Part shown: positions 1 to 64,000 of the stretch, piece after piece
Layout: every line of letters starts with the position of its first letter
Position numbering within the stretch: position 1 is the stretch's first letter
NCBI GenBank assembly: GCA_964016885.1
Contig: OZ024753.1
Span: 37,758,001-37,822,000, forward strand
DNA length: 64,000 bases
From: Eledone cirrhosa
Taxonomy: Eukaryota
Direction: 5' to 3'
The notes under the pieces: model-generated
Databases searched by the model: none
What the model was told of the DNA's origin: nothing
Seen by the model: only the letters and a program-made list of their open reading frames with translations
Program-made: the position numbers and the translations under genes

Positions 1-11
1 CCATCATGTGA

Positions 12-48
<37 letters not shown>

Positions 49-171
49 CACATCAGATTAACGATTCTAGATATGTTCACCTACATATCAATAAAACATG
101 TGTCAGATACATAATAAATGTTAATCCTTCAACTGCGAAATTGGTGGATTCATGTAATTTATTAATATATA

Positions 172-780
172 TATATTAAGTGTATTGAGTTCAAAACTCA
201 AGCATTCCTTTACAATGAAATAGCTCAAAGAAAGAAATATTTCTGAGCCGTATAATATATATGATGAAATACAAATACCAACATATCTGTGTTTATATTG
301 TAAAAGAAATTAAGTTAGCTAGAATGAAATATACTAATTATAATATTACAGTTTGCCTATCTCGATTTAAAATAATAAATCAATAAAAACAAACAGTATT
401 GGCAAATGGCCATGGTGTTTAGACAAATTTAAATTTCAAAATCAAACCTGTTCCGTAGATAAGTTTAACCTTTAAAATCCAAATATGTTTCGAGATGAAT
501 AAGTCTAAGGATATCATGTCCAGCTCACATCAGTAAACACCCTGAACAAATTGATATGCTTCACTTCTAAATATTTTAAAAGACTGTTTAACGCACATGG
601 TTTAACACATGGTTTTCCAGTTTCTAGCCAGCCTCATACTCGTACTGCTAGAAATAACAGCCGTATATATGGGCTACTATCAGCTCAACGTAAGGAGCAA
701 TTATATTAAGTGTATTGAGTTCAAAACTCAAGCATTCCTTTACAATGAAATAGCTCAAAGAAAGAAATATTTCTGAGCCG
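172..780 (+). repeat. 79-bp exact direct repeat (172-250 and 702-780)
   Basis: tatattaagtgtattgagttcaaaactc...ttctgagccg occurs twice, 530 bp apart. Confidence 0.9.
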
Positions 781-849
781 AGTAAAGTGGTCCCAGGTGG
801 CCTTGCTCTAGACTAAAGAGCCTCTCTAGTGCCAGTGTCTGAATAAAAT

Positions 850-1380
850 ACACCCAGTACACTCTGTAAAGTGGTAATGCTAGTGCCCTGATTAAAACGC
901 ACCCAGTACACTCAGTAAAGTACATTCTGTAAAGTAGTGGTGGTGGTGCCATGATAAAGTGCACCCAGTACACTCAGTAAAGTACATTCTGTAAAGTAGT
1001 GGTGGTGGTGCCATGATAAAGTGCACCCAGTACACTCAGTAAAGTAGTGGTGGTGCCATGATAAAGTGCACCCAGTACACTCAGTAAAGTACATTCTGCA
1101 AAGTAGTGGTGGTGGTGCCATGATAAAGTGCACCCAGTACACTCAGTGAAGTACATTCTGTAAAGTAGTGGTGGTGGTGCCATGATAAAGTGCACCCAGT
1201 ACACTCAGTGAAGTACATTCTGTAAAGTAGTGGTGGTGGTGCCATGATAAAGTGCACCCAGTACACTCAGTAAAGTAGTGGTGGTGCCACGATAAAATGC
1301 ACTCAGTGTACACTATGACTGTAAAGTAATAGTGGTATTGCTACAGCCAAGTGCACCCAGTACACTCTGTAAAGTGATAG
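850..1380 (+). repeat. 62-bp minisatellite (with about 45-bp variants) related to the SINE/RTE 3' module
   Basis: Unit gtaaagtagtggtggtggtgccatgataaagtgcacccagtacactcagtaaagtacattct. Related motifs at about 34440-34590, 45730-45865 and 55320-55460. Confidence 0.85.
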
Positions 1381-1460
1381 TGGTCTATGACCCAACCATC
1401 TCATTCCACTTCTCTTCACAACATTCAGCAATGGTTCTATTCTCATCAATCAGTCACTTT

Positions 1461-1667
1461 CCTCCTCCTCCTCCTCTTTCTAACCATCTCTGCTACTTCA
1501 CTATGTATGTTTTAAGCTTAGAAATTGAATTTTATATACATTTACACATATTTGTTTGTTCATTGATTTCCACTTTGTTTATCCAGTATCAAATACTGAG
1601 TGGTTGGTTTTGAAGTGGAGGCTCAAAGGTAAATATTTCCCCCCTCCTAATTTATTATTTTGTCTAA
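1461..1667 (+). pseudogene. Inverted duplicate of TM9SF4 exon 8 with flanking intron
   Basis: About 90% identical to the reverse complement of 8619-8818. The exon copy at 1587-1628 keeps its AG/GT but has CGA>TGA. Confidence 0.9.
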
Positions 1668-1734
1668 ACACAACCTGATTCATCATCATCATCGTTATTA
1701 TTTGTTCTTTCCAGGCCCTTGCTACTGCTGCTGC

Positions 1735-2300
1735 TAGTGGTGGTAAATATGATGATGATGGTGGTAATGATGATAATGGGGGGGGGGGGTAATGGTGCTA
1801 ATGGGGGTGGTGGTTGTGGTAATGATGAAGGTGGTAGTGGTGGTAATGATGATGATGGTGGTAGTGGTGGTAATGATGATGATGGTGGTTGTGGTGGTAA
1901 TGATGATGGAGGTGGTTGTGGTGGTAATGATGATGGTGGTGGTTGTGGTGGTAATGATGATGATGGTGGTAGTGGTGGTAATGATGATGATGGTGGTAGT
2001 GGTGGTAATGATGATGGTGGTGGTTGTGGTGGTAATGATGATGGAGGTGGTTGTGGTGGTAATGATGATGGTGGTGGTTGTGGTGGTAATGATGATGATG
2101 GTGGTAGTGGTGGTAATGATGATGATAATGGTGGCGGTGGTAATGATGATGGTGGTAGCGGTGGTAATGATGATGATGGTGGTAATGATGATGGTGGTTG
2201 TGGTGGTAATGATGATGGTGGTTGTGGTGGTGATGATGATGGAGGTGGTTGTGGTGGTGATGATGATGGAGGTGGTTGTGGTGGTGATGATGATGGAGGT
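1735..2300 (+). repeat. Compound GGT/GAT trinucleotide satellite (about 33-bp higher-order unit)
   Basis: ggtggtaatgatgatgatggtggttgt iterations; produces spurious ORFs in 4 frames. Confidence 0.95.
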
Positions 2301-2516
2301 ATGTATGTGTGTGTGTCACTAATGATGATCAATGATCACAATAGTAAGTGTTGTATCTGACATAGGTACAAAGCCAGACATTTGGAGTGAAGGGTTAAGT
2401 CAATAGAATTAACACCAGTACATGTCTGGTACTTTATTTTACCAACCCTGGAAAGATGAAAGGTAAAATTCACCATGGCAGGATTAGAACTCAGAAAGCA
2501 TTTGGCCAACACCCTA

Positions 2517-3500
2517 ATCATCATCATCATCATCGTTTAACGTCCATCTTCCACGCTTGCATGGGTTTGGACGGGAGTTTTCCCACTTGAGGCAAGAGTG
2601 GTTGTCTTGCTCGCATAGGACTGTCTGGCGGGTTTTCTACGGCTGGATGCCCTTCCTAACACCAACCACGTTTACAGTGTGGACTGGGAGGTTTTTACCG
2701 TGTTACCTACACGGCCACATTACAGCGTGGACTGTGTGTTTCTTTGTCAAGACACCTACACGACCTCATTTGTTTCGGACTGGATGTTGTGGTACCAACA
2801 TAACTTTACATTTAAGGGGGTGGTGTGGATGGGGTGGGGGGGAGTGGGGGGGGGGGGGGGGGGGGGTGTATTTTGTTAGAGGTGCCTACTGGCTGTAGTA
2901 GGTTTCACTTTGTACTTAGGTAAGGCGGGTCTTCTGTAGAACTGTGTAGCGCCAAAGATCTCGGTCCAGTGACATTGTCTTGGAGAGGTGTAAGTGTGTG
3001 AGGTCGGAATTTATCAAGTCGTCCCAGGTTTTTCTGGGTCTGCCTACTCCATGGCTACCGTCTATTTTTATTGCCCTGCACTTTTTTATACAGCTGTCGT
3101 CTTTCATGTGCATCACGTGACCATACCAATGTAGTCTTCTCTCGAGTAAACAACATCTGATCCCTCTTATTTCTAATTTTTCCCTTAGTTCGTTTATGCT
3201 TTGCCGTTCACGTATATTACTATTACACATCCAGCGGAGCATGCAAGCTTCGTTCCTCTCCAGTCTGCGTATATCCTCTGCACACAATGCCCAGGTCTCA
3301 CTGCCGTGTAACATTGCTGTTCGTATGCAGGCATCATACAGCCTGCCTTTCATTTTTAGAGAGAACCCTTTAGCGGCTAATAGTGGTATAAGCTCTCTGA
3401 ACTTTTTCCATCCAGTTCTGACACTAGCTACTGTACTTTCAGAGCACCCTCCACCACTGCTGATTTTGTCACCCAAGTAACGGAAGGTGTCCACTATTTC
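2517..3500 (-). mobile_element. 5'-truncated RTE-clade LINE (RT C-terminus, 3' UTR, (GAT)n tail)
   Basis: ORF 2916..3494 with [24 protein letters not shown] and GRPRKTW. The 3' end reads GGACGTTAAAC(GAT)n. Confidence 0.92.
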
Positions 3501-3767
3501 TAGATAAATCTACAAATCTATTACTTAACCCTTTTGATACTAACCAGCTCAAAACCACTTATTTTTAACAATTCCTATTTAAATTAAAATCTTCCAACAT
3601 AAGAAGTATGACAAATATTATTTTTTAAATGTTAGTAAAACCCTCCAAATTCTTCATTAATTAATCACAATATAGAGTAAGTTATTAAAAATATGGTCAT
3701 GAACAGGTTAAGATTAAAAACATGAATTGTTTTACATGTAATTTTCTAACAAGAAAATTAGCCCTAC

Positions 3768-4052
3768 TTGAAATGCTGCTTTTTTCCACTGGTTCCCTTT
3801 CATAGTTTTATATAGTCGAGCTGAAAAGTAGCCAGCAATTAATCTGAAAAATAGAATATGTAAAGTTGAGAAAGCTTTAATCCTGAGTAAGTAAGTATAT
3901 AATTGTTTCTACTTTTGGCACAAGGCCAGCAATTACCCAGTACATTACTGGTACTTTATTTTATCGAATTCCAATGGTTATCAGGTGACCACAGTTAAGT
4001 AGAAGTCATATATGCAAGCATGAAAAAATAGATGTAAAAATGAGGGCATTTC

Positions 4053-4112
<60 letters not shown>

Positions 4113-7100
4113 GAAATGCCCTCAATGTTACAACATTGCCTTGGATTGCAACAGTGAATTGTTCTAGGCATATGGTATCTATTTACAGTTAAATGGACTG
4201 GGGACATTTGAGAGTTAAATATCTTGGCCATGGACTCTACAATATAGAAGGTTTATAGGGTTTTGGTGAAGAACAATAGCAGAACGACATACTTACCCGA
4301 GAAAGACAAAAAGAAATATGGCAGCTGTCATTAGGGCTCCTCTTGAAGCTGGTGATAACATACCAAGCATTGCAAAAACTACAAAAAGAAGAATACATAA
4401 CAAAATGAGACAACAACAACACAAGTTTTTTAAGGCCCCTTTCCCTACTAAGGCAGAGGTTAGCCATGCAGACTCCATGATAGGCTTCTCCATGTTTCTC
4501 TATCATCTACATTTCTATATCCTAAACACCAGCTTAATAGTTTTGATACCAACCCACCCGAAACAACCCTTACTTTTATGATGAAAATTTATGTTTAAAT
4601 TTAAACCTTCCATTATAATTTTTGTAAGAATCTTTCCTTAAGTTATGCTCCAAATACTAACTTAATAATTAGTTAGTAATATTACTAAATCCCTCCTAAT
4701 TCTCAATTATTTTTAAAATTCATAAAAATCATAGGAAACATATTCCATTAGAAATATGGTAACGAAAGGGTTAATAATGAGAATCTTAGTTATATAACTA
4801 AATCCCTCCAAATTTCTGATTGTTTTCAAAATAATATTAAAATTATAGTTCGTCTCTTTCATTAGAAATATAGTTAAAGATGTCTTATACCAAATAATAA
4901 TACTCACAGATAATGATCAATGACATACAAAAGATTTGGTTCCCAGCACCAATTAGAGAAGCCAACAACTTGGGATGGCGTGGAGGACGAAATATATCAC
5001 CATGAACTAATTTCCAGCCTGTTTCTTCTAATGTCTCTTCCTGAAAACAAAGCATTATTATCAAAATTATAACATTATATATGAAAGGCTACAGTTGAAG
5101 AGAAAGTTTGTATTACTAATCCTAATCCTAAGAACTACAACTTGCAATTGTTATGACATTGATATATCATATTCCCTATTGTTGTTGATACAGCTCACAG
5201 CTGTGTAGGTTTAGTTGGCCTCCAATGAAATTGCATCTCACGAATTCTGCCCAGGTTTTCCTCTACTGCAGCTTCCTTCCACTGAGAACACCTGGTACTT
5301 CTTCACCTAATAATCATCGTCCATATGTATCACATGTCCATACCAGTGCAGTCTTCTTTCCTGTACACTACAATTGATTCCTCCCCTACTCTCAGCTCAT
5401 CTATGCTTTGTCATCCATGTACATTACTACATCATCCATCGAAGCATACATGTTTTATTTATTTCCAGTCTTCACATATCCTCTGCATTTATACACACAC
5501 ACAACAGGCTTCCATACAGTTTCCGCTTACCAAATTCACTCACAAGGCATAGGTCAGGCTGAGGTTATAGTGGATGACACTTGCCTAAGGTGTCACTCAA
5601 TGGGATCAAACATGAAACCATGTGATTGTGAAGTGAGTTCTTTAAGCACACAGATATGCCTGCACCTGCACAGCCAAATCAAATCCCATAGACATTCAAT
5701 TTGTCTTTCACCCTTTCATGATTGATAAGTCCCAGCCCAGAGCTGATAGACTTCTTTCCTTCCAACAGTCACATCTTGGATATTCCAATGGATCAAATGT
5801 AGGAGAGTTGAGAGCCTGTCTGAGTCTGTGTCTGCTTGTAACTGCATGAGCACCTAAACTTCTTAGCAAAAGCAAGCTACGTATTGGCAAGACATACTTG
5901 ATTGTGAGCAATTGCTGAAGCTTATTTCATGTATATTCAGCAGTAGAAAATCTGCCAGATAAAGAGTCGGGAGGACTCTTCAAGTGTGTCAAAGACATGA
6001 CAAACTGTACTAGTGCTAGTGCCATGAAAAGGTACACATGTTAGACTGCAGGAATATATGTAGGCAAGATGCAGGCCTCTGCCCCATTTGAGTACTAACT
6101 GAGCCTGTGGAGACCCATCAAACCCTTACTAGCTGAGTAAATGGACATTATGTGTGTGTGTATCATCACCATTGTTTAACGTCCATTTTCCATGCTGGCA
6201 TGGATATTACGGGAGTTATATGCGTGTATTTATGTATGGCTTTTTTATGAGTGTATGTATGTATGTATGTATGGCTTCTTAGTTAAGAAGACCAACAGTA
6301 ACTGCAATAATAAGGAACAACTTACTATATCTTCATCTTTGTTATATCTTGCAATATCTCTACGCAATGAACGAACCATGATCATTGTGAGAATTCCTAG
6401 GAAATAAATAGAAGGAGAAAATAAATATAAAAAGAAAGAAAGACAGACAAAACAAGGTTTACAGCAGATATAGTGTAAATTTCCTTAAGATACATCTAGA
6501 CTAAAATATAAATAAGACAGACAAAATGAGGTTTATGGCAGATATATTGTACATTTCCAAAAGATACTTCAAGACTAACAACCCACCTTGTTAGATGGTC
6601 GTTTTAGTGCCACAATAAAAAGTACCCAGTCCACACTGTAATGTGGATGGTGTTAGGTAGGTTATCTAGCCATCGAAGCCAAGCCAAAATACACAAATCC
6701 GTATGTTGTCAGGGGTCCCTTAGCTCAAAATGGTTAGAGCCCTTAGTCATTATCTAGAGATAGGGAGTTTGATTGCTCATAGCAGCCACTGACAACATTT
6801 TTTCCATCTCTAGGAGTCTTTACTGTATTTTAATAATCTATTTTATAGCAACTGACTGTAATTGCAGTTTTTTTCTGTGTCTGAGTTTCCTATATCTTCT
6901 TATAAATATATTTCCTCGGAGCTTAGTAAGTTTGAAAATGGTGCAGTCATAATGCTGTTTTATACTTTTCAAGAATGTCTTGCTAATGTGGTGTCATGCA
7001 AGGAGAGGATATTAAGAGTTAATAGATACTAGAAAACAGTTATACAGCCACGTTTTCTCTTCTCTTTTCCTCCTTACATCATAAACCTACTCTTATGAAT

Positions 7101-10100
7101 GTTTTCTCACATGTACTTAATTCTTGTTTTAAGTCCAACATGCTAACAACCACCAGACCACCCATAAACACAATCACAACTTCAATAGCTGTATCTACTT
7201 ACCTGACAAGAAAAAGACGACAACAACTGAATTTATGATAGAAAACCAATGTATCTGTACATCACTCATTGCCAAATATGTATCCCATCGGGAAGCCCAG
7301 CGAATTTTACTGCTCTGCCATTCCACAGAATATGAGAAAATCACTTTTGTTTCTCCTGATAATGAAAAGAAAATAAACAGAAACATTTTTTTAATCTTTG
7401 AGATGATCCAAGAAAGTTTTTTTAAATGACATTAACGCTTTCTTAATTGTATTTCTATTGAAAAATACTATCAATTAATTGATAAAGGATTTTGAAGGAT
7501 TTACTAAGATCATTGATTATTTCATTAATAAGATATTAACTTAACATGTAAAATTTTGCTGGAATACTTTAATATAAAAAAGAACCCTTTAAAATGGGTG
7601 ATTTTGTTTCATAGAACCAGAGCTGGTTGTTGTCACAGATATCAAACTGTCTGAAACTGCTTCTACCATATAAAACTGTTTAACCCTTTAGCATTTAAAC
7701 CAGCCGTATCCAGCCAGAATTCTCTCACCTCTTTCTGTTCAAACCGGCTGTAACCGGTTGCTCATACTTGTGTTAAGGTATGGTTCTCAAAATAAATAAT
7801 ATCAAAATCTTATAGATTCAATATCATGTGAAAATACAATAGTATATATATAGAGTAATGTAAATGCTAAAGGGTTAAATAACAATCTCCCTAGTACTGG
7901 TGCCATGACAAATGTATTCAGCAGAGTATTGGAATGTATGTGGGTGAGATGCAGGTCTTCTGGCCTGTCTAAGTCGTCATTAGCTCCACTTTCAGTACTG
8001 ACTCATATTGTGAAAACACGTCCAACCCTTGCTAGCAGGGAAAACATCTTAAATGATAATGATGAAAAAAATAAATTTAAAGTTCAAAAATATTTACCTT
8101 TTTCATTTATTTTTTGAGGTTTTGGTTCTTTACTTTTGATATTACATTTTTTATTTTCAACCGTAACATCTGGGGAATCAATACTAAAGAATAAAAAAAA
8201 AATAAAGAAAAGTTAATTTTCAAATAAACAATTTATTTTTTTAAACAAATTTACTGGGTCACTCTCCGAAAGACCAAGACAACATAGAAGAGAGAGGGAC
8301 CTCTATACATGTCGAATACCTGAGAACATCTCTAGTGTTTGAGTGAATCAATTGACAAGATCCCAGACCTCAATTATTTACCGAGTGGGACGGGGGAACT
8401 TGTCAAATCAGACAAAAAGGAAAACAGATGTGTGATGATGATGATTATGGTGGTGGTGGTGGTAGTGTGTCAGTGTGTGCATATAGCCATAGAAAAACAT
8501 CTCGTTCAGCTGCTATAAGTGTGGGAAAATGGACATGACGATGATGATGATGAAACAGGATATCATCATCATCATCATCATCATTTCATTTTACGTCTGC
8601 TTTAGCCATATTAATAAATTAGACAAAGTAATAAATAAGAAAAGAAAAAATATTTACCTTTGAGCCTCCACTTCAAAACCAACCACTCGATATTTGATAC
8701 TGGATAAACAAAATATAAATCAATGAACAAACATATATATGTAAATATATATAAAATTCAATTTATAAGCTTAAAACATACATAGGGAAGATATGGTTAG
8801 AGAGAGGGTGAGGAGGAGAAAGCAAGGGGAGAATATGGAGGGGGGTAAGAGGGGGGTGTAGAGGGTAGAAGGAGGGGGGAGGTGGAAGGGGAAGGAAGAG
8901 GATGGAAGGGGAAAGAGGAGGTTGGAAGAGGAAGGAAGAGGGTGGAGGGGGAAGAAGGAGGGTGGAAAGGGGGAGAGGGGGCAATGAGGGTGAGGGGGAG
9001 AAGAGGGGAAGGGGGGGGGGGGTGAAGGGGGGGGGGGGGGGGGGGGGAAGGGGGGGGTGAGGGGGAGAAGAGGGGAAGGGGGGGGGGTTAGTTGAAACTG
9101 AAGTTTAAAGACTAGACTATCATATTTAGTAAAGAACAAACAAAACTTACTTGTCTTCAGTATGATATTTCAAGATGATTTTTAGATGATTGTTGATGAA
9201 AGCCTAGAGAAAAAGTAAAAACAAAAAACATCTCATAAATAATAAGTAAACACATCAATATAAAGGTCCATCGTTGTATGGTCTAGATCAGTGGTTCCCA
9301 AAGTGGCTTCAACAAAGGGGTACCTGGGACTCCGTGAAAAAAGGTAGAAGAGTATGTTTATATTATGAACATATAGCAGTATTAGACTTTGGAGTTCCCC
9401 AAAGCTTATAAGCTCCTATAAGCTTGCATCTCAGGGGTTTCTCAGGTGTTTTAATGATAGGGGCCCTGGTTCTAGCATACACATACACAACTATATATGT
9501 TGTTACAGCTAACATCAATGTTGGCTTAGCCAGCCTCCTATAAATTTGCATCTCAGAGGAGGTTTCTCGGGTGTTTTAATGATAGGGACCCCAGTCCTAT
9601 CATACACATACATATGCATGTTGTTACAGCTCTCACTTATGCAGGTGTAGCCAGCCTCCTATAAATTTTCATCTCAGAAGAGGTTTTTCAAGTGTTTTAA
9701 TGATAGGGACCCCAGTTCTATCATACACACACACATATGTTGTTACAGCTCACACCTATGCAGGCTTAGCTGGCCTCCTATAAGCTTGCATCTCAGAGGA
9801 GGTTTCTTACTAAATCCCTCTAAATTCTTGATTATTTTAAAAATAAATTGAAAATTATCAGTCGTATCTTCTATTAGAAATATGTTGCTAGAAGGGTTAA
9901 ATAAGCCAATTAGAACAGAAAATAGAATAAATATAAACACTTTGCTCTGTACTTACTTCATCATTTTTCACGAAACCTAGCTTGTATCCATGTTCATATT
10001 GTATTTCTCGAGTCTCTAACATCTCAAATTTAGTAGCACATGGCAAATTATCAACCAGCCTAGAAATAAATAAAAGAAATCATCAATTTACAGAAGGTGG

Positions 10101-12214
10101 GCCTACATCTTATGTGGATAACTGGTCCCTCAACACCCCACATTATTAAAAACCACAAATGTTCATGACCTTCATTGTAACATGTGTCAAATTATCGACA
10201 AACCTAAAAATATATGAAAGAAAACATCACTAATTCAGTGGACCTATATCTTATGTGGCAAACTACTTCCTCAACATCATCATCATCATTTTACGTCCGC
10301 TTTTCCCTGCTTGCAAGGGTGGGACGGGAACTGATTCTGGCTTGATTTCTACAGCTGGATGCCCTTCCTAACACCAACCTCATTTACAGTGAGTGCTGGG
10401 TGCTTTTTTGCCGTGGCACCTCCACGACCACTTTGCAGTGGAATGATAAGGACCCCTGTCCCTATCATCTCATTTCTACAGCTGAGTAAACTGGAGCAAT
10501 GTGAAATAAAGTGTCTTGCTCAAGGAAACAACACATCACCCGGTCTGAGAATTGAACTCACAACCTTTCGATTGCAAGGCCAATGCTCTAACCACTAAGC
10601 CATGTGCCTCCACCAAGCCATGTATATTCAAATCTCTTATATAGAAGTACCTACGTATGTCGATGTATCATCATCGTCATCATTTTCATGTGCGCTTTCA
10701 CAGCTAGCAAGGGTTGGACAGGTCTACATAGACCGAGTCAGTACTGAAGTGGGGCTTCTGACCACAAAGATAGACCAGGGATATACATCTCACTTACATA
10801 CAATCTTACGTTCTACCGAGAGCACAGGTGAGGTTATCATGTCTTTGCAGCCCTTAATAACAATATACTCAATGATTTCTAATTTAGGCACAAGACCTAC
10901 AATTTGTACCCCAGAATATGACTGGTACTTTATTTTATTGAAACCGGTAATAATAATGCTCTAATCATAACATGGAAGCACGTAGCCTAGTGGTAAGGGT
11001 GTTGGACTTATGATCATAACATCGTGAGTTCGATTCCTGGGTTGTGTGATGTGTTCTTGAGCAAAACACTTCATTTCATGTTGCTCCAGTATACTCAGCT
11101 GAAAATGATAACCAGCAATAGCTGGGGGTTTAACCCTGCGATGGACAGGCGTCCTGTCCAGGGGGAAGTCTTGTACTCTCAGTCGCTTCACGCCATGAAA
11201 CCGAGACAAGCACTGGCCAAATGAACCTTCTGGCTTAAGACAGACTTTAGACTTTAGAATCATAACAACAGCAACAATAAAAGTACAAGACCAACAATTT
11301 GTACTCCAGTACATGATTGGTACAATCATAACAACATGTCAGTTTATACTTACAAATGAACATAGTATGCATGCCTAATCCTTTCTGCCATGAGTTTACT
11401 ATCTTCTATTGTCATAGTAACAGCTTTATCATTATGACAAAGAATTTCACAGCCTTTATTTTCAGCCATAGTAACCTAAAAAAAGGGGAGAAAAAATAAG
11501 TATATATATAATTAAAGTATGGTTACACATTGTAATCAATTTAAAAAGAAGACAAACTACTTCGTTTAGAGTAAAACAGTAGAATAAAAGAAAAATAAAT
11601 GTTTTGAATTATAATAATACAGACATTGAGTTCAAACAGTGGAACAGATTTTATGAAATGTGGGAGGATATATATATATATATATATATATATATCATCA
11701 TTTTACGCCCACTTTTCCCTGCTTGCAAGGGTGGGACGGGAACTGATTCTGGCTTGATTTCTACAGCTGGATGCCCTTCCTAACACCAACCTCATTTACA
11801 GTGAGTGCTGGGTGCTTTTTTTCCATGGCACCTACACGACCATTTTACAGTGAGTGCTGGGTGCTTTTTTGCCGTGGCACCTCCACGACCACTTTGCAGT
11901 GGAATGATAGGGAACCCAGTCCTATCATCTCATTTCTACAGCTGAGTAAACTGGAGCAATGTGAAATAAAGTGTCTTGCTCAAGGAAACAACACATCTCC
12001 CGGTCTGAGAATTGAACTCACAACCTTTCGATTGCAAGGCCAACGTTCTAACCACTAAGCCAATGATTTATATGTATGTGTGTGTATATATATATGTGTG
12101 TGTATGTGTATATATATATATATATATGTATGTGTGTATAAATATATATGTGTGTATATTTATATGTTTGTATAAATATATGTGTATATTTATGTATGTG
12201 TGTATATTTATATA

Positions 12215-12250
<36 letters not shown>

Positions 12251-15200
12251 CGGTCACGTGATGCGCATGAAAGACGACAGCTGTATAACAAAGTGCAGGG
12301 CAATAAAGATAGACGGTAGCCACGGAGTAGGCAGACCCAAAAAAACATGGGACGAGCTGATAAATTCCGACCTCACACGCTTACACCTCTCCAAGACAAT
12401 GTCACTGGACAGAGACCTTTGGCGGTACTCAGTAATAGAGAAGACCCGCCTTACCTAAATACAAAGTAAAAACCTACTACAGTCAGTAGGCATCTCTATC
12501 AAAACACACCCCCGTCCCACCACCTCCACCCCACCCACACCGCCCCTTTCAATGTAAAGTTATGTTGGTACCACAACATCCAGGCCGAAACAAATGAGAT
12601 CGTGTAGGTGTCACGACAAAAAAACACACAGTCCACGCTGTAAATGTGGCCGTGTAGGCAACACGGTAAAAACCTCCCAGCCCCACACTGTAAATGTGGT
12701 TGGTGTTAGGAAGGGCATCCAGCTGTAGAAAACCCGCCAGACAGTCCACGCTGTAATGTGGCTGTGTAGGCAACACGGTAAAAACCTCCCAGCCCACACT
12801 GTAAATGTGGTTGGTGTTAGGAAGGGCATCCAACTGTAGAAAACCCGCCAGACAGTCCTATGCGAGCAAGACAACCACTCTTGCCTCAAGTGGGAAAACC
12901 CCCGTCCAAACCCATGCAAGCGTGGAACACGGACGCTAAACCTGATGATGATGATGATGATCATCATCATCATCATTTCATTTTACGTCCGCTTTTCCCT
13001 GCTTGCAAGGGTGGGACGGGAACTGATTCTGGCTTGATTTCTACAGCTGGATGCCCTTCCTAACACCAACCTCATTTACAGTGAGTGCTGGGTGCTTTTT
13101 TGCCGTGGCACCTCCACGACCACTTTGCAGTGGAATGATATGGACCCCAGTCCCTATCATCTCATTTCTACAGCTGAGTAAACTGGAGCAATGTGAAATA
13201 AAGTGTCTTGCTCAAGGAAACAACACATCACCCGGTCTGAGAATTGAACTCACAACCTTTCGATTGCAAGGCCAATGCTCTAACCACTAAGCCATGTGCC
13301 TCCATAAATACACACATATATATCTATACACACATATATATAAAAATACACATACACATACATACATATATATACACACATGGTGGCTGCCAACTCGTTT
13401 TCGAGTACGGCCACTACTTTATATCCATGTAGGAGAACCCCTACCGATGCGCTGAACGAGTGTGACTTTTTAGTCCAGCCAGCGACTTGAAAACTCTGGT
13501 ACAAACACTACACTTGTGACAATTATTGACACATAGTGCTGGGCCCATGGTACCATGTGACGGCAAGTGCAGAGAGATCTCCAGATATAAAGCAATGCCT
13601 GTGCCGTGAAGCTTTTATAGTGAGCAAAGGCACTGCACAAAGCCAGTCCCACTCTCTTAACCAAGATGATATTTACCAAAAAGAAGAACAAGTCAACATC
13701 ATTGGATACCATCAGGGTTGCAGGTGTTATATCAGAGTTTTCCTTCTCCTAGAATTCTGCCTTGACAAAGGCTAAGGAGTCATCTCTCCCAGTGATTTTG
13801 GATGGCCATTGACTCTTAAGAGCTCCTTTGCCCTTTGACAGGTTTTGTTTTTAGTCCTGCAGGATGTCCAAAGTCACCCTCCTCACCAAGAAACCTTGGT
13901 GGGGTTGCCAGTTTAGTCGCCAACGACCCGACCATGAGACAGGTTGTACTGGGATACATGTTACCAGTAGCACCAAGTGGTGACCTGACATAATATATAC
14001 ACACATACACATATATATATATATACACACACGTGTATGTGTGTGTATATATATATGTATGTGTGTGTATGAAGGGGATAGTGTGCGTGTGTGTATTTAA
14101 TTTTGTAAAGTCAAGAGAATATTTCCTTTTATTTATATTGATCTACTGGATTATTAAAATCAATTCTGTTTGTTTTCCTTCCTATGTCACTCTTTGTCAT
14201 GTCATTTTACAGTTGAAAGCTTATAGAGCACAGATGGACAGAATCAATCATTGGTTCAATACATTCATGATAATACGAGTCTCTTGAGTATTTTAGCAAC
14301 AGGGGCCTCAGTCTTATCTGTAAATAATTCCCCTTCATCCAATTTTGACGCTCACATGTGCAGAAGAAGAAATAAAAGGGACTTTATGTGAATCGCGGCC
14401 TAATGGACGATTCATTTGCGACAGTTTTCACGAAAATCGGACATTCCTGTAAAAAATTATACCATCTGCAACTTTGCCTTGTTTTTTGCGCAAAGTCGAA
14501 CCCCCGCTTCAGTTTTATTGATTTTTTACATGAACGCGTGACCTCTGAAGTAGATTTGAGTAGCTAAAGACCTGTCCCGGTAAATTTGCTATATGTGAAA
14601 AAAAGTTGATCAAAATTGCGTCTAGGTTTATTGCCCTTTGCAACAGCCTCAAGAACATGTAATTAAAAAGATTTACCATGGACTATCGTGCACGTTGGTA
14701 TTGTGTTGGCCTGCAAAAATCGGTGATCAAATGAGGCAACAATAAGCCATACTGATGACGTTTAAGCGGGTGGCAAGGAATTGATGCGGCATAGATAGCC
14801 ATGGGAGTCTTGAAGGAGCACAGCGGTCAGGCAAAAGAAAGGGCCGAGGATGGGATGGTGGCTGACAGTGCATGGAGGCGGCATCCTGAAGCATGAAGAT
14901 GTAGTGGGGCGACGGCCAGCAGGCAAGTAAGAGGGCAGGGGTGGACGGTGGCAAGGATGCCGCATGGTGATCCATGGCAGTCTTGAAGGAGCACTGCGGG
15001 CAGGAAAAAGAAAGGGCCAAGGAGGGGATGGCGGCTGACAGAGCATTGATGCGGCATGGTGATGCATGACGATGCAGTGGGACGACGGCTTGCAGGGAAG
15101 GGAGATGGCCGGGATTGACGGTGGCAGGGATTCCGCATGGTGAACCATGGCACTTGTGAAGGACCAAGTCGTGCGGGTAAGGGAGAGGGAAGGGGAGGGC

Positions 15201-15271
15201 ATGGTGGCTGACAGAGCATGGATGCGGCATGACGATGCAGTGGGACGACATATATATACACACACACACAC

Positions 15272-15334
<63 letters not shown>

Positions 15335-18300
15335 TACATATATACATAACTATATATGTGTGTGTGTTTATCTATGTATGTATTTTATCAGCAGGTAGGA
15401 GGTTTTGGCTGCGCCAGTGAGGTGGGAGAGAGGGAAAGAGAGTAAGTTAGAGTTGTCCTGATTTTTGCCTCTGGTGATCCAATTATCGATTTTTCGAAAA
15501 TTTAATGTAGCGCATGTTTATCCCCAGATCAAAATACACACTTGCGTCGAGTTTCATCGATTTTTGGCTTCTGGGGTCCCGATTATCGATTTTTCGAAAT
15601 TTTCAAGTAGCCTATTCCACTCTACGCGTTGAGTTTTATATATGTGTGAGGTTTCATGAAAATTGGATGAACGGTGTAGCATGCAAGTTCGGTACACCAA
15701 ACAACGCCCAACTTCACTTTATATATAAGATATATATATATATTATATATATATTATATATACATAGGAAAAGGTTCAGGACCTCGATGGTGGAGCTCAA
15801 GCCGTTTCGACGGCTATTTCTGGACTAAAATCAGATTTTAGTCCAAAAATAGCCGTCGAAATGGCTTGAGCTCTGCCGCTAGGGTCCTGAACCTTTTCCT
15901 ATTACCCACTCTACTACCCAAAGTATCGAGTACTCTCGTGCATTATGGTCCAACTGGTTCCTTACCACACTCCCTCCATTATATATATATATATATATAT
16001 ATACAGTCTGTTCTCTTTTTATGCAAAGATGTGTTCGTGGACACAGCACGTAAAGCAAATTCACGAAATTCAAGTCAAATTTTCCCATAAATTAAAAAAA
16101 TTAAAAACCACATATGTTATTCACGCAAAGTGAATATCTAATAGTATTTTTTAAAACATTTTTGTGTAAAAAGCAAAGACTGTATACATATATATATATA
16201 CACACACATGCATATAAATATGTGTCAGTATGTATACCAATCCCACAAGCATCACATTAACACCATTATAAGTCTGTGGTGACAGTTGTTTATGTCACCC
16301 ATAAACAATACCATTTGACAGAATTGCAGTGTGATAAAAAAACATTAGCATTATACACCTTACTTAGAATAAGGTATCGTGTCAAGGAAAGAGATCTTAA
16401 CCAGAACATAATAATGATGCTGATGATAATGATGATGATAGTGGCAATTGTGATAGCAATGTTGTACAATCAACTGAAGATTAAGAGATTTATAATTCAG
16501 TGTGGGGAGCACTTCATACTTTTTTTTTCATGGCAATACTTCCAAATGGTTAGTTAGTACACTGAAATCAGTAAAAAGAATATAAAAGAATATTTTCTTA
16601 CTTCATAAGGTGTATTTGTAATCCGATCCCCTCGTAATACTTCGCCTGGAAAAATAGAAAAAAAAAAATTTGCAATTATGAGCTTTATTCAAAATCTATA
16701 ACACTTAATTTTAATAGAAAATAAAACCATTTAAAAGCAGAGCGTGAGGTGTTACACATATATTTAAATATTACACATATACACATCATCATCTACACCA
16801 TTTATGATGATGATAATGTGTGTATATATATATATAATAGTAGAACACTGGTAGGTTATATCCGTAGTAGTAGAGCACTCAGTCCATGGGACGAGTTTGG
16901 TAGTAGTAGTTCCACAACAGTTAGTTCATCATACCGAGAACAAATGTTTCACCTTATTCTTAGACCGAGCTGAGGATCCGAATAAGGTAAAACATTTGTT
17001 CTCGGTATGGTGAACTAACTGCTGTGGAACTACTTATATATATATACACACACAGATTTATATATGCTCATACACACTAATATAAATTAGAGCTTAAGCT
17101 TTCAATTTTGTTTTCTTCAACAGTTTACACATTTACCATATATTTCCTGATATTTCAAGGCAAGGACCCGTTTATCAAAGAAAAGAAATGGAGTGTAGTG
17201 GTGTCGACGTGTGAAGTAGAGTTGTTGTCACCATTACACTCCATTTCCTTTAAATAAGAAAAAGAGAAAGTGCACTCACCAAGGTTTTCTGTCTTATAAA
17301 CCACTCCACCTTTAGGTTTACAAAATGGTAAAGAATAATATTCATAAGGTAACTGTGTCTTTACACTGGTCATTTTCACAGCCTGGAAACAGAAAACAAA
17401 CAATAAAAGTAATTATCTTCATTATCATAACACTAGTGGACCAGTGTCATTAATAATGATAGCTATAATATTGATCATATGGAGATGAGATGAGTACAAC
17501 ATGTATGCTGTGTACAAGAGGTGAGATGGAGGAGTACCTTAGCAAGACTACCCACAGGCAAATATAAATATAAGCTTTTCAGAGTAGGGAATGGTGTCGA
17601 TGTGAGTGGAGTAAACATCCTACTAACTGAGAAGTAGATAGATTAGGTAATTGAGGTAGAATTAATGACAGAACTATGAAGCTCAGAATAGTCATAGACA
17701 GTAGAATAACGACAATTATCACCACCTATGCACCATAATCAGGACTAAGTAAAGAACAAAACTACCATTTCTATGAGGAACTCTTATAAACAGTTTCCGT
17801 TATTGGTGACAGAGGCCTTATCCTAGCTGGTGACTTCACTGGACATGTTGGACAGTAGGATGGATTCACTGAAGTTCATGACAGCTATGGTTATGGCTCA
17901 AAAAATAAAGAGGAAGTGAGACTCCTAGAATTCTGTGATGCAAATGAACTCGCTATTTGTAACATTAACTTCAGGAAGTCAGCCAACCAACTGATCAACC
18001 ACAAGTGAAGCAATGCTGTGCTGGAAAAGACCCATCCAACCCATGCAAGCATGGAAAAGCAAGCATAAAATGATGATGATGAAGACGACAACGACAAATA
18101 TTGAAAATGACTTACCTTGACCTCTACAAACTGACCCCTTTGAAACTCAACTGGAGCCACTCCGGGTACGTAGAAAGCCTGGGCTATGTAGAACAATGAA
18201 CAAGCCACAAAACTCCATAGTATATATATATGAATCATCTAGAAATGAAAAGAAGTAAAGAAAAATATTAAATGCTTAGCAAAACTAACTTTACATTATT

Positions 18301-21300
18301 CTATATTTACCATTGTATTTTTACTGTAAAAACTTTCTTACATAATTATCTCATATAATATTGAATCTACGAGATTCTTATGTTATTTAGTTTGAGAACA
18401 ATACCGTAATGTAGGTATGGGTGGACAGTTACAACCAGTTTGAACAGAAAGAGGTGAGAGAGTTCTGGCCAGATACGGCTGGTTTAAATGCTAAAGGGTT
18501 AAACATTTTGGTTTAAATGCTAAAGGGTTAAACATTTTGGTTTAAATGCTGGGTTAAACATTTTGATTAACATATTTATAATGAAGGACATCACCTATGA
18601 TTTTCAAATAATTTCAAAAATAATCAACATAGGACCTTCTGGAAGATGTATCTGCCCAGTGACCCTCTCAGGAATAAATAAGCATAAATGGTCGAAGAAG
18701 ATGTCATGTTTCAGACAATGAGAAAATTAATTATATTACTAAATCCTTTCAATTTCATGATTATTTTCAAAGTTAGTCGTAAGTCATATCTTTTATTAGA
18801 AATATAGTATGATAAGAGTTATATTCTAGTAGAATGTCACAGAGAAATTTACTCAGTGTAACAGATGTCAAGTTATTGATTACAAAAATGAAACCACAAT
18901 GACAGATGCAGTTTCCTGCTTTTGTTAGTTTTGCTTTTAGTTGATCCTAATTTCTTTAACTAAGAAAGGTCATCACTTTCAAAGTGAATTAATTAAATAT
19001 ATCTTTTTGTTCATGTGTATGTGCGTGCATGTCTTTCTGGCAATCTCACTAAGAATTGCCTTAACTTGAACTTAACCCTTTAGCATTTACATTACTCTAT
19101 ATATACTATTGTATTTTCGTGGTAAAGGCTTTATCTCACATAATATTGAATCTGTGAGATTTTGATATTATTTATTTTGAGAACAATAACTTAACATCAG
19201 TATGAGTGGCCAGTTACAGCCGGTTTGAAAAGAAAGAGGTGAGAGAATTCTGGCTGGATATGGCTGGTTTGAATGCAAAAGGGTTAAACAAATACCAAGA
19301 ATGGAATGGATGAAATGCCGTGGCCAGCGGATTCAAAACAACATCCGACAGACTGGTTGATTTACATTTATATTAGTGGCACAAGCACTAGGGTGTTTAG
19401 TGTACATGGTTATGCTGGGGCAGTAGGGTGTTTGAGGCTAGGGTCCAGCATTTCATTGCTGAGTGAGGAGGGGTCATGGTGGTGCCGGGCTTTCCTGAGA
19501 GTTGTTCCATCTCTCTGCTTCTTCGGGTTTAAGGTTGAGAAAGGGATCAGGGGCATGTTGGCAGGAAGTTACCATACCACGACAAGGGAGCCCAAACTTA
19601 CTAACTTTAACCAACTCAAACCCCTGCGTATATATACACAATTACAATGAATCGAGTGAATCGGGCGAGATATTCTCATTTTCTTCATAGTATTTGCCTG
19701 TTACTTTAATTTATCGACTCAGGAAGAATGGAAGGTAAAGCTGAACTCCGTGGGATTGGAACTCAGAAAGTAAAGAGCCGAACAAACACCGCAAGGTATT
19801 TTATCCGACGCTGTTGTGAACCTTTCTGCCAACCTAGCGCCCATGTTTGTGTGTAATGATTTCATTCTTAGCAACTGGAGCACACCCAAACCAGAAGCTT
19901 GACTAATAAAAGCACGATTAATTTCTATTAAACAATCACAGTCAAACAAATAAAAGAATTTGTGGCCGAAAGTTCACACCTACTCGTTTGAAACGACCAC
20001 TGGTAAACTTGGCTAATTTGATTATTTTAAAAAAGAAATCTTCCATAATTTCATGTAAGAAGCGATATCAAGTTATGTTCTAAACACTAGCTTTAATAAT
20101 GATTTCTTTATTAACCACAAAGGGTTTATATGAAGAAAAACGTTATGACAGTACAGGACGAAAATAAACACCAGCTTAATAATGAGAAAGTTAGTTTATA
20201 TTACCAAATCCGTCCAGATTCGTTATTATTTACCAAATAATTTGAAAATAGACAGTGTCTTTCGTTAGAAATATGATAATGAAAGGGTACACACTTATTC
20301 TTTACTATTCATATATGTAAAAATATCACATCATATATATAACGTAAGAAAAAGATAAGAAATATTAAAGTAACTTATCATGTGGCAAATATTATTAGGG
20401 TGTTGTTTTCCTTGTTATTTTTTAAATAATCTCCGCCGATGAAATTGACAATTTTTTGCTGGCGTAATTGTCAATAATTTTTGAAATGTACAAACATTAC
20501 AGCAATATAAATTAAATTTAAGCCATTTTCTTTAATATTAAATCAATATCGATGATTTCTGTTGTCATATTTCATTTTCTTTGATAATGAATACTAATAA
20601 TTTTACAGAGATTACCAGAAGTGTTGTGATCTTAAATCGAAAGATTACCTTAATTGTTTTTCTTTCTATCCTTAATAAAGTAAGATGTACATATTTTTAA
20701 CGACTGTCAAATAATAATGTAGAAACCCCAACATAAAACACCTGAGATCTTAATGAACTCTTTACAGAAAGTAAAATCGGGAGGGAAATAAAAATGTCAT
20801 TTTTTAATTTTGTATAAATTTCCTATTTACTTTTGAAGTTAAAGAGTTTTCGCTGGAGAAAGCGATCATCTAATTTTATGTCCGTGTGATCAGAAGCTAA
20901 ACTAAATCCCGAATATTAAGTTTTCAGTGGACTTTAACCGTGAAAACACAATACTATTGTTCAAGTATGTCCCCACCTCCTAAAATATAAGGAGAAAATA
21001 ATGGATCGGTAAACTGTCAAAATAAGATAAAAATTCTGTGTTGTTAAAAAAAGCTTTACGCATTTATGTGTGTATGTATATATATATAAATCATATATAT
21101 ACTGCAAGATGCATGTTTGTTTGTATGTATGTATATGCATGCGTGTGTGTATGTGGATTTTAGCACTTAAAGGAGAAACATAAACACATTATTTAAAAGC
21201 TAGAAATTCAAAGCCGCCGTAATAAGAATACGAACTAAAATTAGGACATAAATAAAAAAGTTAGAAGCAAACCAGAAACAAACATTTTAGCTCACACAAA

Positions 21301-21484
21301 GCGCTGACATTAAAAAATCAGACGATTTGTGTGAGCTAAAAAACAAGTTTGTCAATAGAAATAAAAAGATAATGGCTATGAGCTATAAACATGATCGAGG
21401 AACTAGAGACAGAGACGAGTAAAACATAAGAGTAAATGTATTTGTGTGATTATTGACTGATACCTTTCCTACCTTGGTTGCCAT
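3768..21484 (-). CDS. TM9SF4: Transmembrane 9 superfamily member 4 (nonaspanin), 3'-partial; first 14 coding exons, 401 codons
   Basis: Exons in transcript order: 21473-21484 (MATK), 18116-18238 (..[16 protein letters not shown]), 17280-17382 ([25 protein letters not shown]), 16602-16645 ([14 protein letters not shown]), 11354-11475, 9957-10059 ([17 protein letters not shown]), 9151-9203 (AFINNHL), 8658-8699 ([11 protein letters not shown]), 8098-8183, 7203-7355 ([24 protein letters not shown]), 6326-6396 ([10 protein letters not shown]), 4908-5040 ([16 protein letters not shown]), 4297-4378 ([14 protein letters not shown]), 3768-3843 ([14 protein letters not shown]). All introns are GT-AG and phases join in frame. 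Motifs match the TM9SF4 subfamily from memory. Confidence 0.95.
7684..7874. mobile_element. piggyBac-type MITE (TTAA TSD, CCCTTTAGCATTTA TIR)
   Basis: TTAA|ccctttagcattta...taaatgctaaaggg|TTAA. Further copies at 19076-19283, 50552-50714 and 53389-53609; partial copies at about 18290-18498, 27150-27290, 31757-31960 and 34955-35160. Confidence 0.85.
8800..9088 (+). repeat. Polypurine G-run tract
   Basis: Almost purely G/A with many G4+ runs. Confidence 0.9.
9400..9806 (+). repeat. About 121-bp tandem repeat (about 3.5 units); also at about 34245-34450
   Basis: ctcctataa..gcatctcagaggaggttt..ttaatgatagggaccccag..ctatcat repeated. Confidence 0.8.
10141..10275 (-). pseudogene. Degenerate tandem copy of the TM9SF4 exon 6 acceptor region
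   Basis: ttttag-G-TTT GTC GAT AAT TTG (FVDNL) versus the true ttctag-G-CTG GTT GAT AAT TTG (LVDNL). Flanking intron 10204-10275 resembles 10060-10135. There is an in-frame stop. Confidence 0.7.
10275..10612 (-). mobile_element. tRNA-derived CORE-type SINE with RTE-like 3' tail
   Basis: Head tggcttagtggttagagc (A box) and gagttcaattc (B box); CORE-like ccttgagcaagacactttatttcac; tail shared with RTE; (GAT)n. Confidence 0.85.
10972..11257 (+). mobile_element. Second tRNA/CORE SINE family with a different 3' half
   Basis: tagcctagtggtaaggg..gagttcgattcc head, CORE-like part, aaccctgcgatggacaggcgtcctgtccaggg, (agacttt)n tail. Relatives at about 39880-40070 (-), 52890-53115 (-) and 54570-54650 (+). 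Confidence 0.75.
11695..12062 (-). mobile_element. Same SINE family
   Basis: Near-identical to 10275-10612, with an internal duplication of about 57 bp. Confidence 0.85.
12251..12961 (+). mobile_element. 5'-truncated copy of the same RTE family
   Basis: [38 protein letters not shown], near-identical to the 2517-3500 copy. The 3' UTR has an internal tandem duplication and a (GAT)n tail. Confidence 0.92.
12962..13304 (-). mobile_element. Same SINE family, tail-to-tail with the RTE copy
   Basis: Near-identical to 10275-10612. Confidence 0.85.
13385..13990 (-). mobile_element. RTE-type 5' UTR / non-autonomous RTE derivative
   Basis: GC-richer island between (TA/CA)n tracts. The motifs agttttccttctcctaga..aaggcta and ggggttgccagtttagtcgcc are recalled from RTE 5' regions. 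Confidence 0.5.
14770..15250 (+). repeat. GC-rich 173-bp degenerate tandem repeat (about 3 units)
   Basis: Marker gctgacag at 14861, 15034 and 15207. Confidence 0.75.
15440..15730 (-). mobile_element. Possible non-autonomous Helitron-like end
   Basis: The minus strand begins A|TCTTATATATAAAG. tttcatgaaaattgg-type internal motifs resemble small Helitron derivatives. No CTAG terminus was identified. Confidence 0.35.
15765..15901. repeat. About 137-bp fold-back inverted repeat
   Basis: taggaaaaggttcaggacc...aaaat cag atttt...ggtcctgaaccttttccta. Confidence 0.9.
16004..16182. mobile_element. Tc1/mariner/pogo-type MITE
   Basis: TA|cagtctgttctctttttatgcaaa...tttgtgtaaaaagcaaagactg|TA. Confidence 0.65.
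16905..17034 (+). ncRNA. Fold-back element containing a near-complete type I hammerhead ribozyme motif (16964-17006)
   Basis: ACCGAG-CTGAGGA-TCC gaataa GGT-[A]AAA-CATTTG-TT-CTCGGT. The opposite arm preserves GAAA. Confidence 0.55.
17470..18095 (+). mobile_element. Degenerate RTE AP-endonuclease fragment joined to an RTE-type 3' tail
   Basis: Broken frames give [25 protein letters not shown] and [31 protein letters not shown], followed by cccatccaacccatgcaagcatggaaaag..(gat)n. Confidence 0.8.
19076..19283. mobile_element. piggyBac-type MITE, opposite orientation to the 7684 copy
   Basis: TTAA TSD and TIRs. Confidence 0.85.
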
Positions 21485-63500: not shown

Positions 63501-64000
63501 TCAGGATATGTGTAGGGTATGTTAGTATATGTGTAGTGTATGTCAGGATATGTGTAGGGTATGTTAGTATATGTGTGGGGTATGTCAGTATATGTGTAGG
63601 GTATGTCAGGATATATGTAGGGTATGTTAGTATATGTGTGGGGTATGTCAGTATATGTGTAGTGTATGTCAGTATATGTGTGGGGTATGTCAGGATATGT
63701 GTAGGGTATGTTAGTATATGTGTGGGGTATGATAGGATATGTGTAGGGTATGTCAGGAAATGTGTAGGGTATGTCAGTATATGTGTGGGGTATGATAGGA
63801 TATGTCAGGATATGTGTAGGGTATGTTAGTATATGTGTGGGGTATGTCAGTATATGTGTAGGGTATGTCAGGATATGTGTAGGGTATGTTAGTATATGTG
63901 TGGGGTATGATAGGATATGTGAAGGGTATGTTGATTTTTTTTTTTTTTTGTATTTTCCAGTGTAAGAAACAGGATGCAAATGAGTTTGGATAAACTTGCT
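31283..64000 (+). CDS. CPLANE1: Ciliogenesis and planar polarity effector 1 (C5orf42/JBTS17 orthologue), 3'-partial; 32 coding exons, about 3131 codons in window
   Basis: N-terminus MAEDLTIYLNVIASTNIKRKKPWSQIIWIGK|EGEESLILLD resembles vertebrate CPLANE1. Further recalled blocks: MGPAFFLPIHPVI, FSISTHPHSPVIICSDG, VVQSLARYMAMYF, GLVPEAAWFSNKVGDWK, FRDFCGLTWFLHVRDQLS, LSSVSDIIIDL. Exons: 31283-31375, 32143-32281, 32926-33045, 33986-34206, 34738-34847, 35292-35534, 35956-36138, 36740-37846, 38340-38542, 39056-39130, 39641-39858, 40557-40716, 41165-41390, 42430-42551, 43061-43281, 43796-43975, 44461-44676, 45962-47634, 48063-48131, 48649-48949, 49242-50485, 50875-50944, 51283-51394, 51602-51720, 52424-52765, 53168-53339, 53905-54439, 54726-54873, 55534-56016, 56755-56870, 58693-58824, 63961-64000 (partial). 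All are GT-AG with consistent phases. The low-complexity C-terminal exons are less certain. Confidence 0.88.
36740..37846 (+). CDS. CPLANE1: CPLANE1 large coding exon 8
   Basis: 1107 nt open exon within ORF 36708..37850; acceptor ttttgtag, donor GA|gtaagt. Confidence 0.9.
38002..38272 (+). mobile_element. Same SINE family, 5'-truncated
   Basis: CORE part, RTE-like tail and (GAT)n. Confidence 0.8.
39416..39544. repeat. About 130-bp fold-back inverted repeat
   Basis: aaagaatcgctgctttcacccttaa.ggg aagat ccc.ttaagggtgaaagcagcgattcttt. Confidence 0.9.
41450..42130 (+). repeat. About 60-bp GTG-rich minisatellite in a CPLANE1 intron
   Basis: gtagagatgatagtggtgacaacagtaacagatgtagtggtgata(gtg)n units. 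Confidence 0.95.
43380..43640 (+). mobile_element. Old RTE-clade RT C-terminal fragment
   Basis: VELLLLQIVRSQLRY then frameshifted VVRMSR; similar to 23110-23380. Confidence 0.55.
44709..45415 (+). mobile_element. Head-to-tail array of an about 190-bp tRNA-like SINE
   Basis: About 4 units containing gagttcaaatccc..ctttgcctttcatccttacg(a/g)ggtcgataaaataaagtaccagt..agaaacaattatt. Dispersed copies at about 28890, 40940, 48270, 51070 and 57585. Confidence 0.8.
45962..47634 (+). CDS. CPLANE1: CPLANE1 large coding exon 18
   Basis: 1673 nt open exon containing ORF 46052..47638; acceptor tatatag, donor AC|gtgagt. Confidence 0.88.
47822..48032 (+). repeat. About 27-bp AT-rich tandem repeat
   Basis: acatataaaatgatgttgatatatat units. 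Confidence 0.9.
49242..50485 (+). CDS. CPLANE1: CPLANE1 large low-complexity coding exon 21
   Basis: 1244 nt open exon containing ORF 49296..50489; acceptor ttcctag, donor AG|gtaagt. Confidence 0.82.
53389..53609. mobile_element. piggyBac-type MITE
   Basis: TTAA TSD and TIRs. Confidence 0.8.
56921..57498 (+). mobile_element. 3' fragment of a Tx1/L1-like LINE in a (TCTA)n tract
   Basis: Decayed ORF2 end (VFLCLVAM..YHFRRKVRVE..KFAERWVNV), T-rich 3' UTR, AATAAA, then (TCTA)n. A (TCTA)n tract also lies at the 5' side. Confidence 0.6.
59878..60061 (+). mobile_element. Full-length about 190-bp SINE with target-site duplication
   Basis: Flanked by attattttagcggcctcgg at 59859-59877 and 60062-60080. 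Confidence 0.85.
61850..63930 (+). repeat. 21-bp minisatellite, about 2.1 kb
   Basis: gtagggtatgtcaggatatgt with a few recurrent variants and about 10-bp half units. Confidence 0.97.

Follow-up and report, generated by a model that had tools for sequence, protein, structure and literature searches.

The editing-complementary sequences (ECS) known so far lie mostly in an adjacent intron, are conserved, and are shaped around the target adenosine. An A-C mismatch at that adenosine is common, but not obligatory, in site-selective ECS. In pairs of human Alus, editing falls off over a length of about 800 nt, and it is less strong across gene segments (PMC4066801, in part), a distance rule that was derived from human Alus and not from cephalopods. 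Parts of other papers report that long imperfect duplexes are tolerated in pre-mRNA (PMC7006430), that repeat-linked editing in squid is mostly low and ubiquitous (PMC9068888), and that the intronic partners of coleoid editing sites are largely unstudied (PMC8891338). Short inverted copies of nearby sequence are also known at the level of DNA, as the templated insertions of MMBIR and SD-MMEJ (PMC8421209, PMC2943611 and PMC4056370, each in part).

I will compare with these systems a locus in Eledone cirrhosa. The window considered here is the whole stretch of DNA that was analyzed, 64,000 nt of contig OZ024753.1 (positions 37,758,001 to 37,822,000 of the forward strand). A preliminary description had noticed in it an inverted copy of TM9SF4 exon 8 within the same gene and had taken the copy for a candidate ECS. 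That interpretation is partly supported: its geometry was right, its polarity partly so, and its functional inferences fail or lack support.

The copy and its place in TM9SF4

The features referred to below are these, with coordinates in the window:

1..21484, minus strand: gene TM9SF4 (Pfam EMP70) with its exons 1-14, the remaining exons 15-21 being found in the 4 kb to the left of the window (L006)
1387..1470, minus strand: host DNA at the left end of the copy, consisting of a decayed unit (90 bp) from a dispersed repeat with 75 matches in the genome
1459..1667, plus strand: inverted copy of exon 8 together with the last part of intron 7 and the first part of intron 8, antisense in the pre-mRNA, within host intron 14; 180/209 alignment
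1587..1628, plus strand: pseudo-exon within the copy, AG and GT retained on the non-transcribed side, 2/42 differences, Arg codon changed to TGA
1639..1649, plus strand: 11 nt containing six T>C changes and a single T>A, half of the T>C skew; cluster p = 4e-5
1670..1698, plus strand: additional piece of the same copy, matching 8563-8535 at 25/29, with the right junction within a (CAT)n run
3767..8183, minus strand: exons 9-14, enclosed by the two arms
8564..8618, no strand: 55-nt piece in the original, absent from the copy
8619..8821, minus strand: original arm, comprising exon 8 with the last part of intron 7 and the first part of intron 8
8658..8699, minus strand: TM9SF4 exon 8, 42 nt, frame-preserving, encoding a peptide given as 13 letters; unchanged in one spliced contig

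The gene was identified by Pfam EMP70, which matched five of the six minus-strand segments tested, and by the exon-10 peptide, which shares 92% identity with a protein of Octopus bimaculoides from a cluster in which the members carry the name TM9SF4. By tblastn and six-frame reading there are 14 coding exons in the window and seven more within 4 kb to its left. Numbered from the first exon, with its ATG at 21484, the 42-nt exon comes eighth, and the intron that contains the copy is intron 14. The preliminary description had assumed that the gene extends past the left edge of the window and that the copy lies about 7 kb downstream of exon 8 in the same pre-mRNA; both assumptions are borne out, the first by the seven further exons in L006 and the second by the positions of intron 14 and exon 8. 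A copy outside the TM9SF4 transcript is rejected, since exons on both sides place it in intron 14. The arms are separated by 6,950 nt and six exons (exons 9-14), and each of the introns flanking exon 8 is under 500 nt.

The match between the two arms is not in doubt. A BLAST alignment of 1459-1667 (plus) with 8821-8619 (minus) has 180 identities in 209 positions (86%), one 6-nt gap and an E value of 7e-66, confirming, with slightly wider limits, the earlier statement that 1461-1667 is the reverse complement of 8619-8818. The ungapped core of the pair (1496-1667 and 8619-8790, 172 nt) is 90% identical. A further alignment of copy and original counts 23 substitutions and one 6-nt gap over the whole arm. 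The further piece at 1670-1698 matches 8563-8535 with a homology score better than that of any of 922 control segments, and the total length copied from around exon 8 is about 240 bases, with the donor about 7 kb away. No older homology was detected left of 1459 (z -0.07), and an Rfam search of positions 1-10000 of the window found no match. The 55-nt piece that separates the corresponding segments of the original is likely a later insertion, since the match of a related organism (see below) also ends at 8619; if so, it interrupts the possible duplex.

The copy contains parts of both introns that flank exon 8, so that it was made either from genomic DNA or from RNA before splicing. The sequence has no poly(A) tail. 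Within the exon frame of the copy, an Arg codon (CGA) has become a stop (TGA). A search of the 3.0-Gb genome gave, among the matches listed, two full-length places, which are the two arms, the other three of five matches being scraps of about 50 nt; four candidates were scored, so the count is a lower bound. A common repeat was rejected as the identity of the copy on the strength of those two full-length places. An assembly artefact was also rejected, the arms being inverted and 11-12% diverged; runs X1 and X2 have no contig cover over 8659-8820.

Both junctions fall in simple sequence. At the left, the end of the host repeat and the donor share an imperfect CT-rich microhomology of about 12 nt and low complexity, and the first 12 nt of the alignment, one T>C change among them, may be assigned either to the copy or to the host repeat. 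At the right, within the (CAT)n run, the microhomology is again imperfect and of low complexity. The dispersed 90-bp repeat gave its 75 matches in a genome search, from which 16 copies were inspected. Its units form a dispersed tandem family (1387-1470 in the window; L016-L031 elsewhere), with up to nine in a row. I take the translated unit (1387-1470, minus strand) to resemble the C-terminal end of LINE reverse transcriptases, as does 2919-3509, and the family, LINE-like on its reverse strand, is presumably a retroelement fragment turned minisatellite.

The surrounding sequence is rich in rearrangements. The 3' part of TM9SF4 has been copied three times downstream, in tandem segmental duplications of about 27.6 kb. 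They lie at G000:C13:37,678,000-37,756,000 (L006-L013), are 98-99% identical, and contain the TM9SF4 3' exons as three partial copies, one of them with an inverted 950-nt piece (96% identity). The duplication is recent or, in part, one of assembly. A 261-nt fragment with TM9SF4 exon 16 (91.6% identity) occurs at L008:4248-4508 and in L011 and L013, copied from L006:8575-8835 and 91-92% identical in each duplicated unit; it is older than the adjoining 99% pieces. Within 764 kb around the window there are 22 two-copy pairs of 100-600 nt, and the members of eight pairs, the exon-8 pair included, lie within 11 kb of each other. When three pairs were checked genome-wide, two proved to be true local two-copy duplicates (268 nt inverted and 361 nt direct) and one a common repeat. 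The inverted duplicate (G000:C13:37607933-37608200 and 37609393-37609655) is 95% identical, with its copies 1.2 kb apart. Intron 14 itself holds an exact 79-nt direct duplicate (172-250 and 702-780, 530 nt apart), likely another local templated copy. A piece of 230 nt drawn at random from the gene would include an entire exon in 11% of cases.

Elsewhere, the window contains long degenerate tandem arrays (61839-63932, 41452-42212 and 843-1384). It also contains, at 48626-58825 on the plus strand, long open frames of 221, 415, 198 and 221 amino acids, probably exons of a second gene, for which Pfam returned only a sub-threshold DUF4378 match, in one of the five frames tested.

Divergence between the arms

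The direction of the changes was assessed with run X5, from another organism, one 760-nt contig of which fits 8619-8790 with seven differences and 13 gap letters. This contig was taken as an ortholog of the original arm because it also has a piece matching 8346-8374. Sites were apparently listed only if at least 31 letters from the end of a piece, and 8715-8757 was masked, leaving three diagnostic sites readable in the relative (8713, 8690 and 8689), all three in agreement with the original. From the total of seven differences, of which 8759 is not a site of the copy, it follows that the relative has the original state at 12 or more of 18 sites. Among the 11 T/C sites in 8619-8790, only two of which can be read directly, it has T at five or more. 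The polarity given in the preliminary description, from original to copy, thus stands at the three readable sites and at no fewer than 12 of 18. Intronic differences number 16/130 between original and copy and 7/130 between original and relative, as against 22/155 between original and relative in a neighboring, probably orthologous piece of intron. These values indicate that the donor flank is conserved and that the copy has diverged about as fast as unconstrained intron.

The preliminary description had counted 11 changes from T in the original to C in the copy among the 17 substitutions in 1501-1667, a count that I reproduced. Over the whole arm the figure is 12 of 23 (the original being read in its sense orientation), equivalent to A>G on the transcribed strand. 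On the plus strand of the copy, T>C occurred at 12 of 97 sites and A>G at none of 51 (p = 0.008), and the 12 coding-strand A>G changes compare with 3.3 expected from the spectrum of local repeats (p = 2e-4). The exon-8 pair ranks fourth in asymmetry of pyrimidine and purine transitions among 1,529 paralogous pairs with tandem repeats masked, pairs that are not independent of one another.

But six of the 12 T>C changes fall in one 8-nt tract (cluster p = 4e-5), and if that tract is counted once, seven A>G changes remain against the 3.3 expected (p about 0.05); if the junction site is left out as well, p rises to 0.12. Adjacent substitutions make up 11 of the 23, against 4.7 expected (p = 0.016), while clustering in a 3-nt window is not significant (p = 0.24). 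The C-rich cluster might be a patch copied from a purine tract of the donor, with which it shares an 11-mer match at 8870, but such a match has a chance probability of 0.15. Transcription-associated A>G asymmetry is known in mammals (PMC2927911, in part). As an explanation here it was rejected, since the intronic repeats of TM9SF4 have A>G at 14/793 and T>C at 9/737 (p = 0.41); the T/A skew of the introns is 0.002. The clustered A>G excess is incompletely explained, and a small residue remains.

Origin of the copy and rival explanations

The copy is probably a templated insertion made at the level of DNA, which decays neutrally, without a selected function and perhaps with trace editing. This reading draws on the unspliced state of the copy, the position of both junctions in simple repeats, the stop in the exon, the fact that about half of the differences break pairs, and the presence of other local copies. 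Microhomology-mediated template switching followed by neutral decay would account for these features. During DNA repair or replication, a polymerase would have left its template at the CT-rich microhomology, copied the donor at a distance of 7 kb and come back at the (CAT)n run, leaving an inverted copy of about 240 bases in intron 14. The T>C clusters may have come from clustered polymerase errors or the expansion of runs, multi-base errors that would have occurred either with the copying or later. The arms could pair only after a further 7 kb had been transcribed, when the introns flanking exon 8 would mostly have been spliced; with pairing so late relative to the splicing of short introns, editing or skipping, if it occurs, would be no more than a by-product at low level. 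Trace editing or skipping at that level is plausible.

It is improbable that a chance copy of an exon became a long-range editing or splicing guide de novo, acting over six exons of a housekeeping gene, or that the A>G cluster represents ADAR editing written into germline DNA. The first of these possibilities, considered by itself, is that the copy works as a long-range ECS or splice mask for exon 8 and is kept by selection, which I think unlikely. The geometry is suitable. The two arms lie in one pre-mRNA and are predicted to form a duplex of -270 kcal/mol (-70 kcal/mol for the exon alone), as the preliminary description had anticipated, with 180 Watson-Crick pairs, 12 G-U pairs, 11 mismatches and one 6-nt bulge. 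Of the 11 inverted pairs inside the gene it is third by score and by duplex energy. The arms are identical over a run of 41 nt that spans most of exon 8 and its donor site, and the 12 adenosines of the exon would give, if edited, eight non-synonymous outcomes (of the kinds K>E/R, Y>C, E>G, Q>R or S>G), while skipping would drop 14 codons in frame. Such elements could be missed, since coleoid editing studies, according to part of PMC8891338, largely ignore introns.

What was found of expression lends no support to such a guide. Of the eight public runs listed, none is recorded as RNA; four, all in the form of contigs, were compared over 8065-8870, and run X4 was counted as RNA only because its contig is spliced. 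That contig, of 1,968 nt, joins exon 8 to exon 9 with no differences over 42 and 87 nt, respectively, which excludes majority editing or majority skipping in this one sample, minor forms being invisible in contigs. The recoding or masking of exon 8 that had been proposed finds no support in the single RNA contig, which includes the exon unchanged (0/42), within the same limit on minor editing. Arg in place of Gln at the end of the exon in other proteins was considered as a sign of recoding and rejected, since it also occurs in a chiton. TM9SF4 gave no match in the supplement files searched for PMC8382921, PMC6881472 and PMC9068888, although large tables of sites may lie outside these and published editing is possible. 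Among the papers listed in a search of the literature, none reports, by its title or the start of its abstract, such an exon copy or TM9SF4 editing.

Nor do the substitutions indicate that pairing has been selected. None of the 51 adenosines in the original arm, 12 of them in exon 8, faces an A-C mismatch, and pairs are broken by 11 of the 23 substitutions and by the 6-nt gap. It had been suggested that the T>C skew reflects selection on pairing, since T>C replaces a U-A pair with a wobble. Such selection would predict G>A as well, which also keeps a wobble, yet from original to copy G>A is found at 0/24 sites and the pair-breaking C>T at 4/31; together with the 11 mismatches and the bulge, this leaves the suggestion unsupported. 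The duplex is further burdened by the likely 55-nt insertion inside the original arm and by the distance between the arms. The low divergence of the exon core favors function on its face: a 65-nt core around the exon has two differences, against 21/138 outside it (p = 0.009), and copy and original differ at 2/42 positions in the exon and 21/161 in the flanks. But the same contrast is seen in the exon-16 fragment, which is on the same strand, lies outside the gene and cannot pair (2/96 in the exon, 20/165 in the flank, p = 0.005). A selected role as an editing guide is not supported.

It is also unlikely that the polarity is an artefact, as it would be if the copy predated the split from the relative and some of the T/C differences were C>T changes that the introns of the original underwent before that split. 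The rate of C>T in local repeats is 2.9 times that of T>C, and a relative that shares the later history of the original cannot polarize older changes, besides being readable at only 2 of the 11 T/C sites. Against this, the change of CGA to TGA must have arisen in the copy, since every octopod protein seen retains Arg. The contig of the relative continues without a break or a change in depth over the 41-nt run in which the two arms of E. cirrhosa agree, a weak hint that the relative is without the copy; X1 and X2 have no cover there and hence give no positive control.

I consider it highly unlikely that the copy is a fossil of ADAR activity in DNA. Hyper-edited intron RNA would in that case have served as template for repair or reverse transcription, or ADAR would have deaminated DNA directly, in a hybrid formed by nascent exon-8 RNA with the non-template strand of the copy. 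All 12 changes are indeed A>G on the transcribed strand of the downstream arm and fall in A-rich clusters, with the other classes on the scale of background (coding-strand G>A 4, 3.1 expected). However, ADAR favors adenosines preceded by U or A rather than by C or G (PMC3113232, in part), and the coding-strand adenosines that changed include those of GAA (3/5), GAU (1/4) and AAG (1/5), as against UAG (0/3) and UAA (0/9). Adenosines with a 5' G changed at 4/17. The changed adenosines are therefore without ADAR context, and the changes lengthen existing G runs, which suggests slippage. An edited RNA template, as the preliminary description had envisaged, would if sense predict A>G on the plus strand of the copy, where none was seen (0/51). 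The same count, the retained introns and the lack of an A tail are all contrary to a retrocopy of an edited transcript.

A longer duplex within the gene provides a comparison. The pair 2517-3125 and 12249-12961 is inverted and repeat-derived (89-94% identity, about 600-700 nt) and crosses the exon-8 pair. Its predicted duplex is stronger (-877 and -434 kcal/mol), and there is no A>G excess in it (1/106 in the downstream arm), which again speaks against ADAR.

Finally, that the arms act as reverse-complementary matches looping out exons 9-14, giving a circular RNA or a multi-exon skip, is scarcely credible, since although they flank those exons and one arm is 435 nt from the exon 9 acceptor, the other is 2.1 kb from the exon 14 donor, and the longer pair at 2517-3125 and 12249-12961, nearer that donor, would compete.

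Comparison with known systems

As debris, the copy is of minor importance, short local copies being present here at several per megabase. It does carry a caution, that an antisense copy of an exon with changes friendly to G-U pairing cannot, taken alone, count as evidence for an editing guide, and reads from the copy could mimic variants on exon 8. If copy-dependent editing were true, the locus would be a datable natural test of the origin of cephalopod recoding sites, valuable because the intronic partners of coleoid sites are so little studied (PMC8891338, in part). If either a guide or a write-back into DNA were true, coleoid recoding sites could be born from local duplications.

Intragenic inverted repeats that are edited promiscuously, such as Alu pairs (PMC4066801, in part) and those of squid (PMC9068888, in part), have in common with TM9SF4 a long imperfect duplex within a transcript. 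The TM9SF4 pair works as other inverted repeats within a gene do. In contrast to Alu pairs, the TM9SF4 arms consist of unique sequence with an exon in it and are no copies of a transposon, and the 7 kb between them is about nine of the decay lengths described for Alus (PMC4066801, in part).

The intronic ECS of the GRIA2 Q/R and R/G sites and of insect ion channels share with TM9SF4 an intronic complement that covers, within a single pre-mRNA, a coding exon and both of its splice sites; the host lineage of the TM9SF4 copy recodes heavily. The copy in TM9SF4 differs from them in lying six exons away and in having no A-C mismatch at any adenosine of the exon.

With the templated insertions of MMBIR and SD-MMEJ, as described in parts of PMC8421209, PMC2943611 and PMC4056370, it shares a short, inverted, nearby copy with introns kept and a locus rich in rearrangements, and perhaps also, in imperfect form and in sequence of low complexity, microhomology at the junctions. 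The copy here is about 240 nt long, its donor is 7 kb away, and it has diverged by 11-12%, so the pathway cannot be named. The TM9SF4 copy fits best with templated insertions: it has the geometry of an ECS and lacks the signs of selection.
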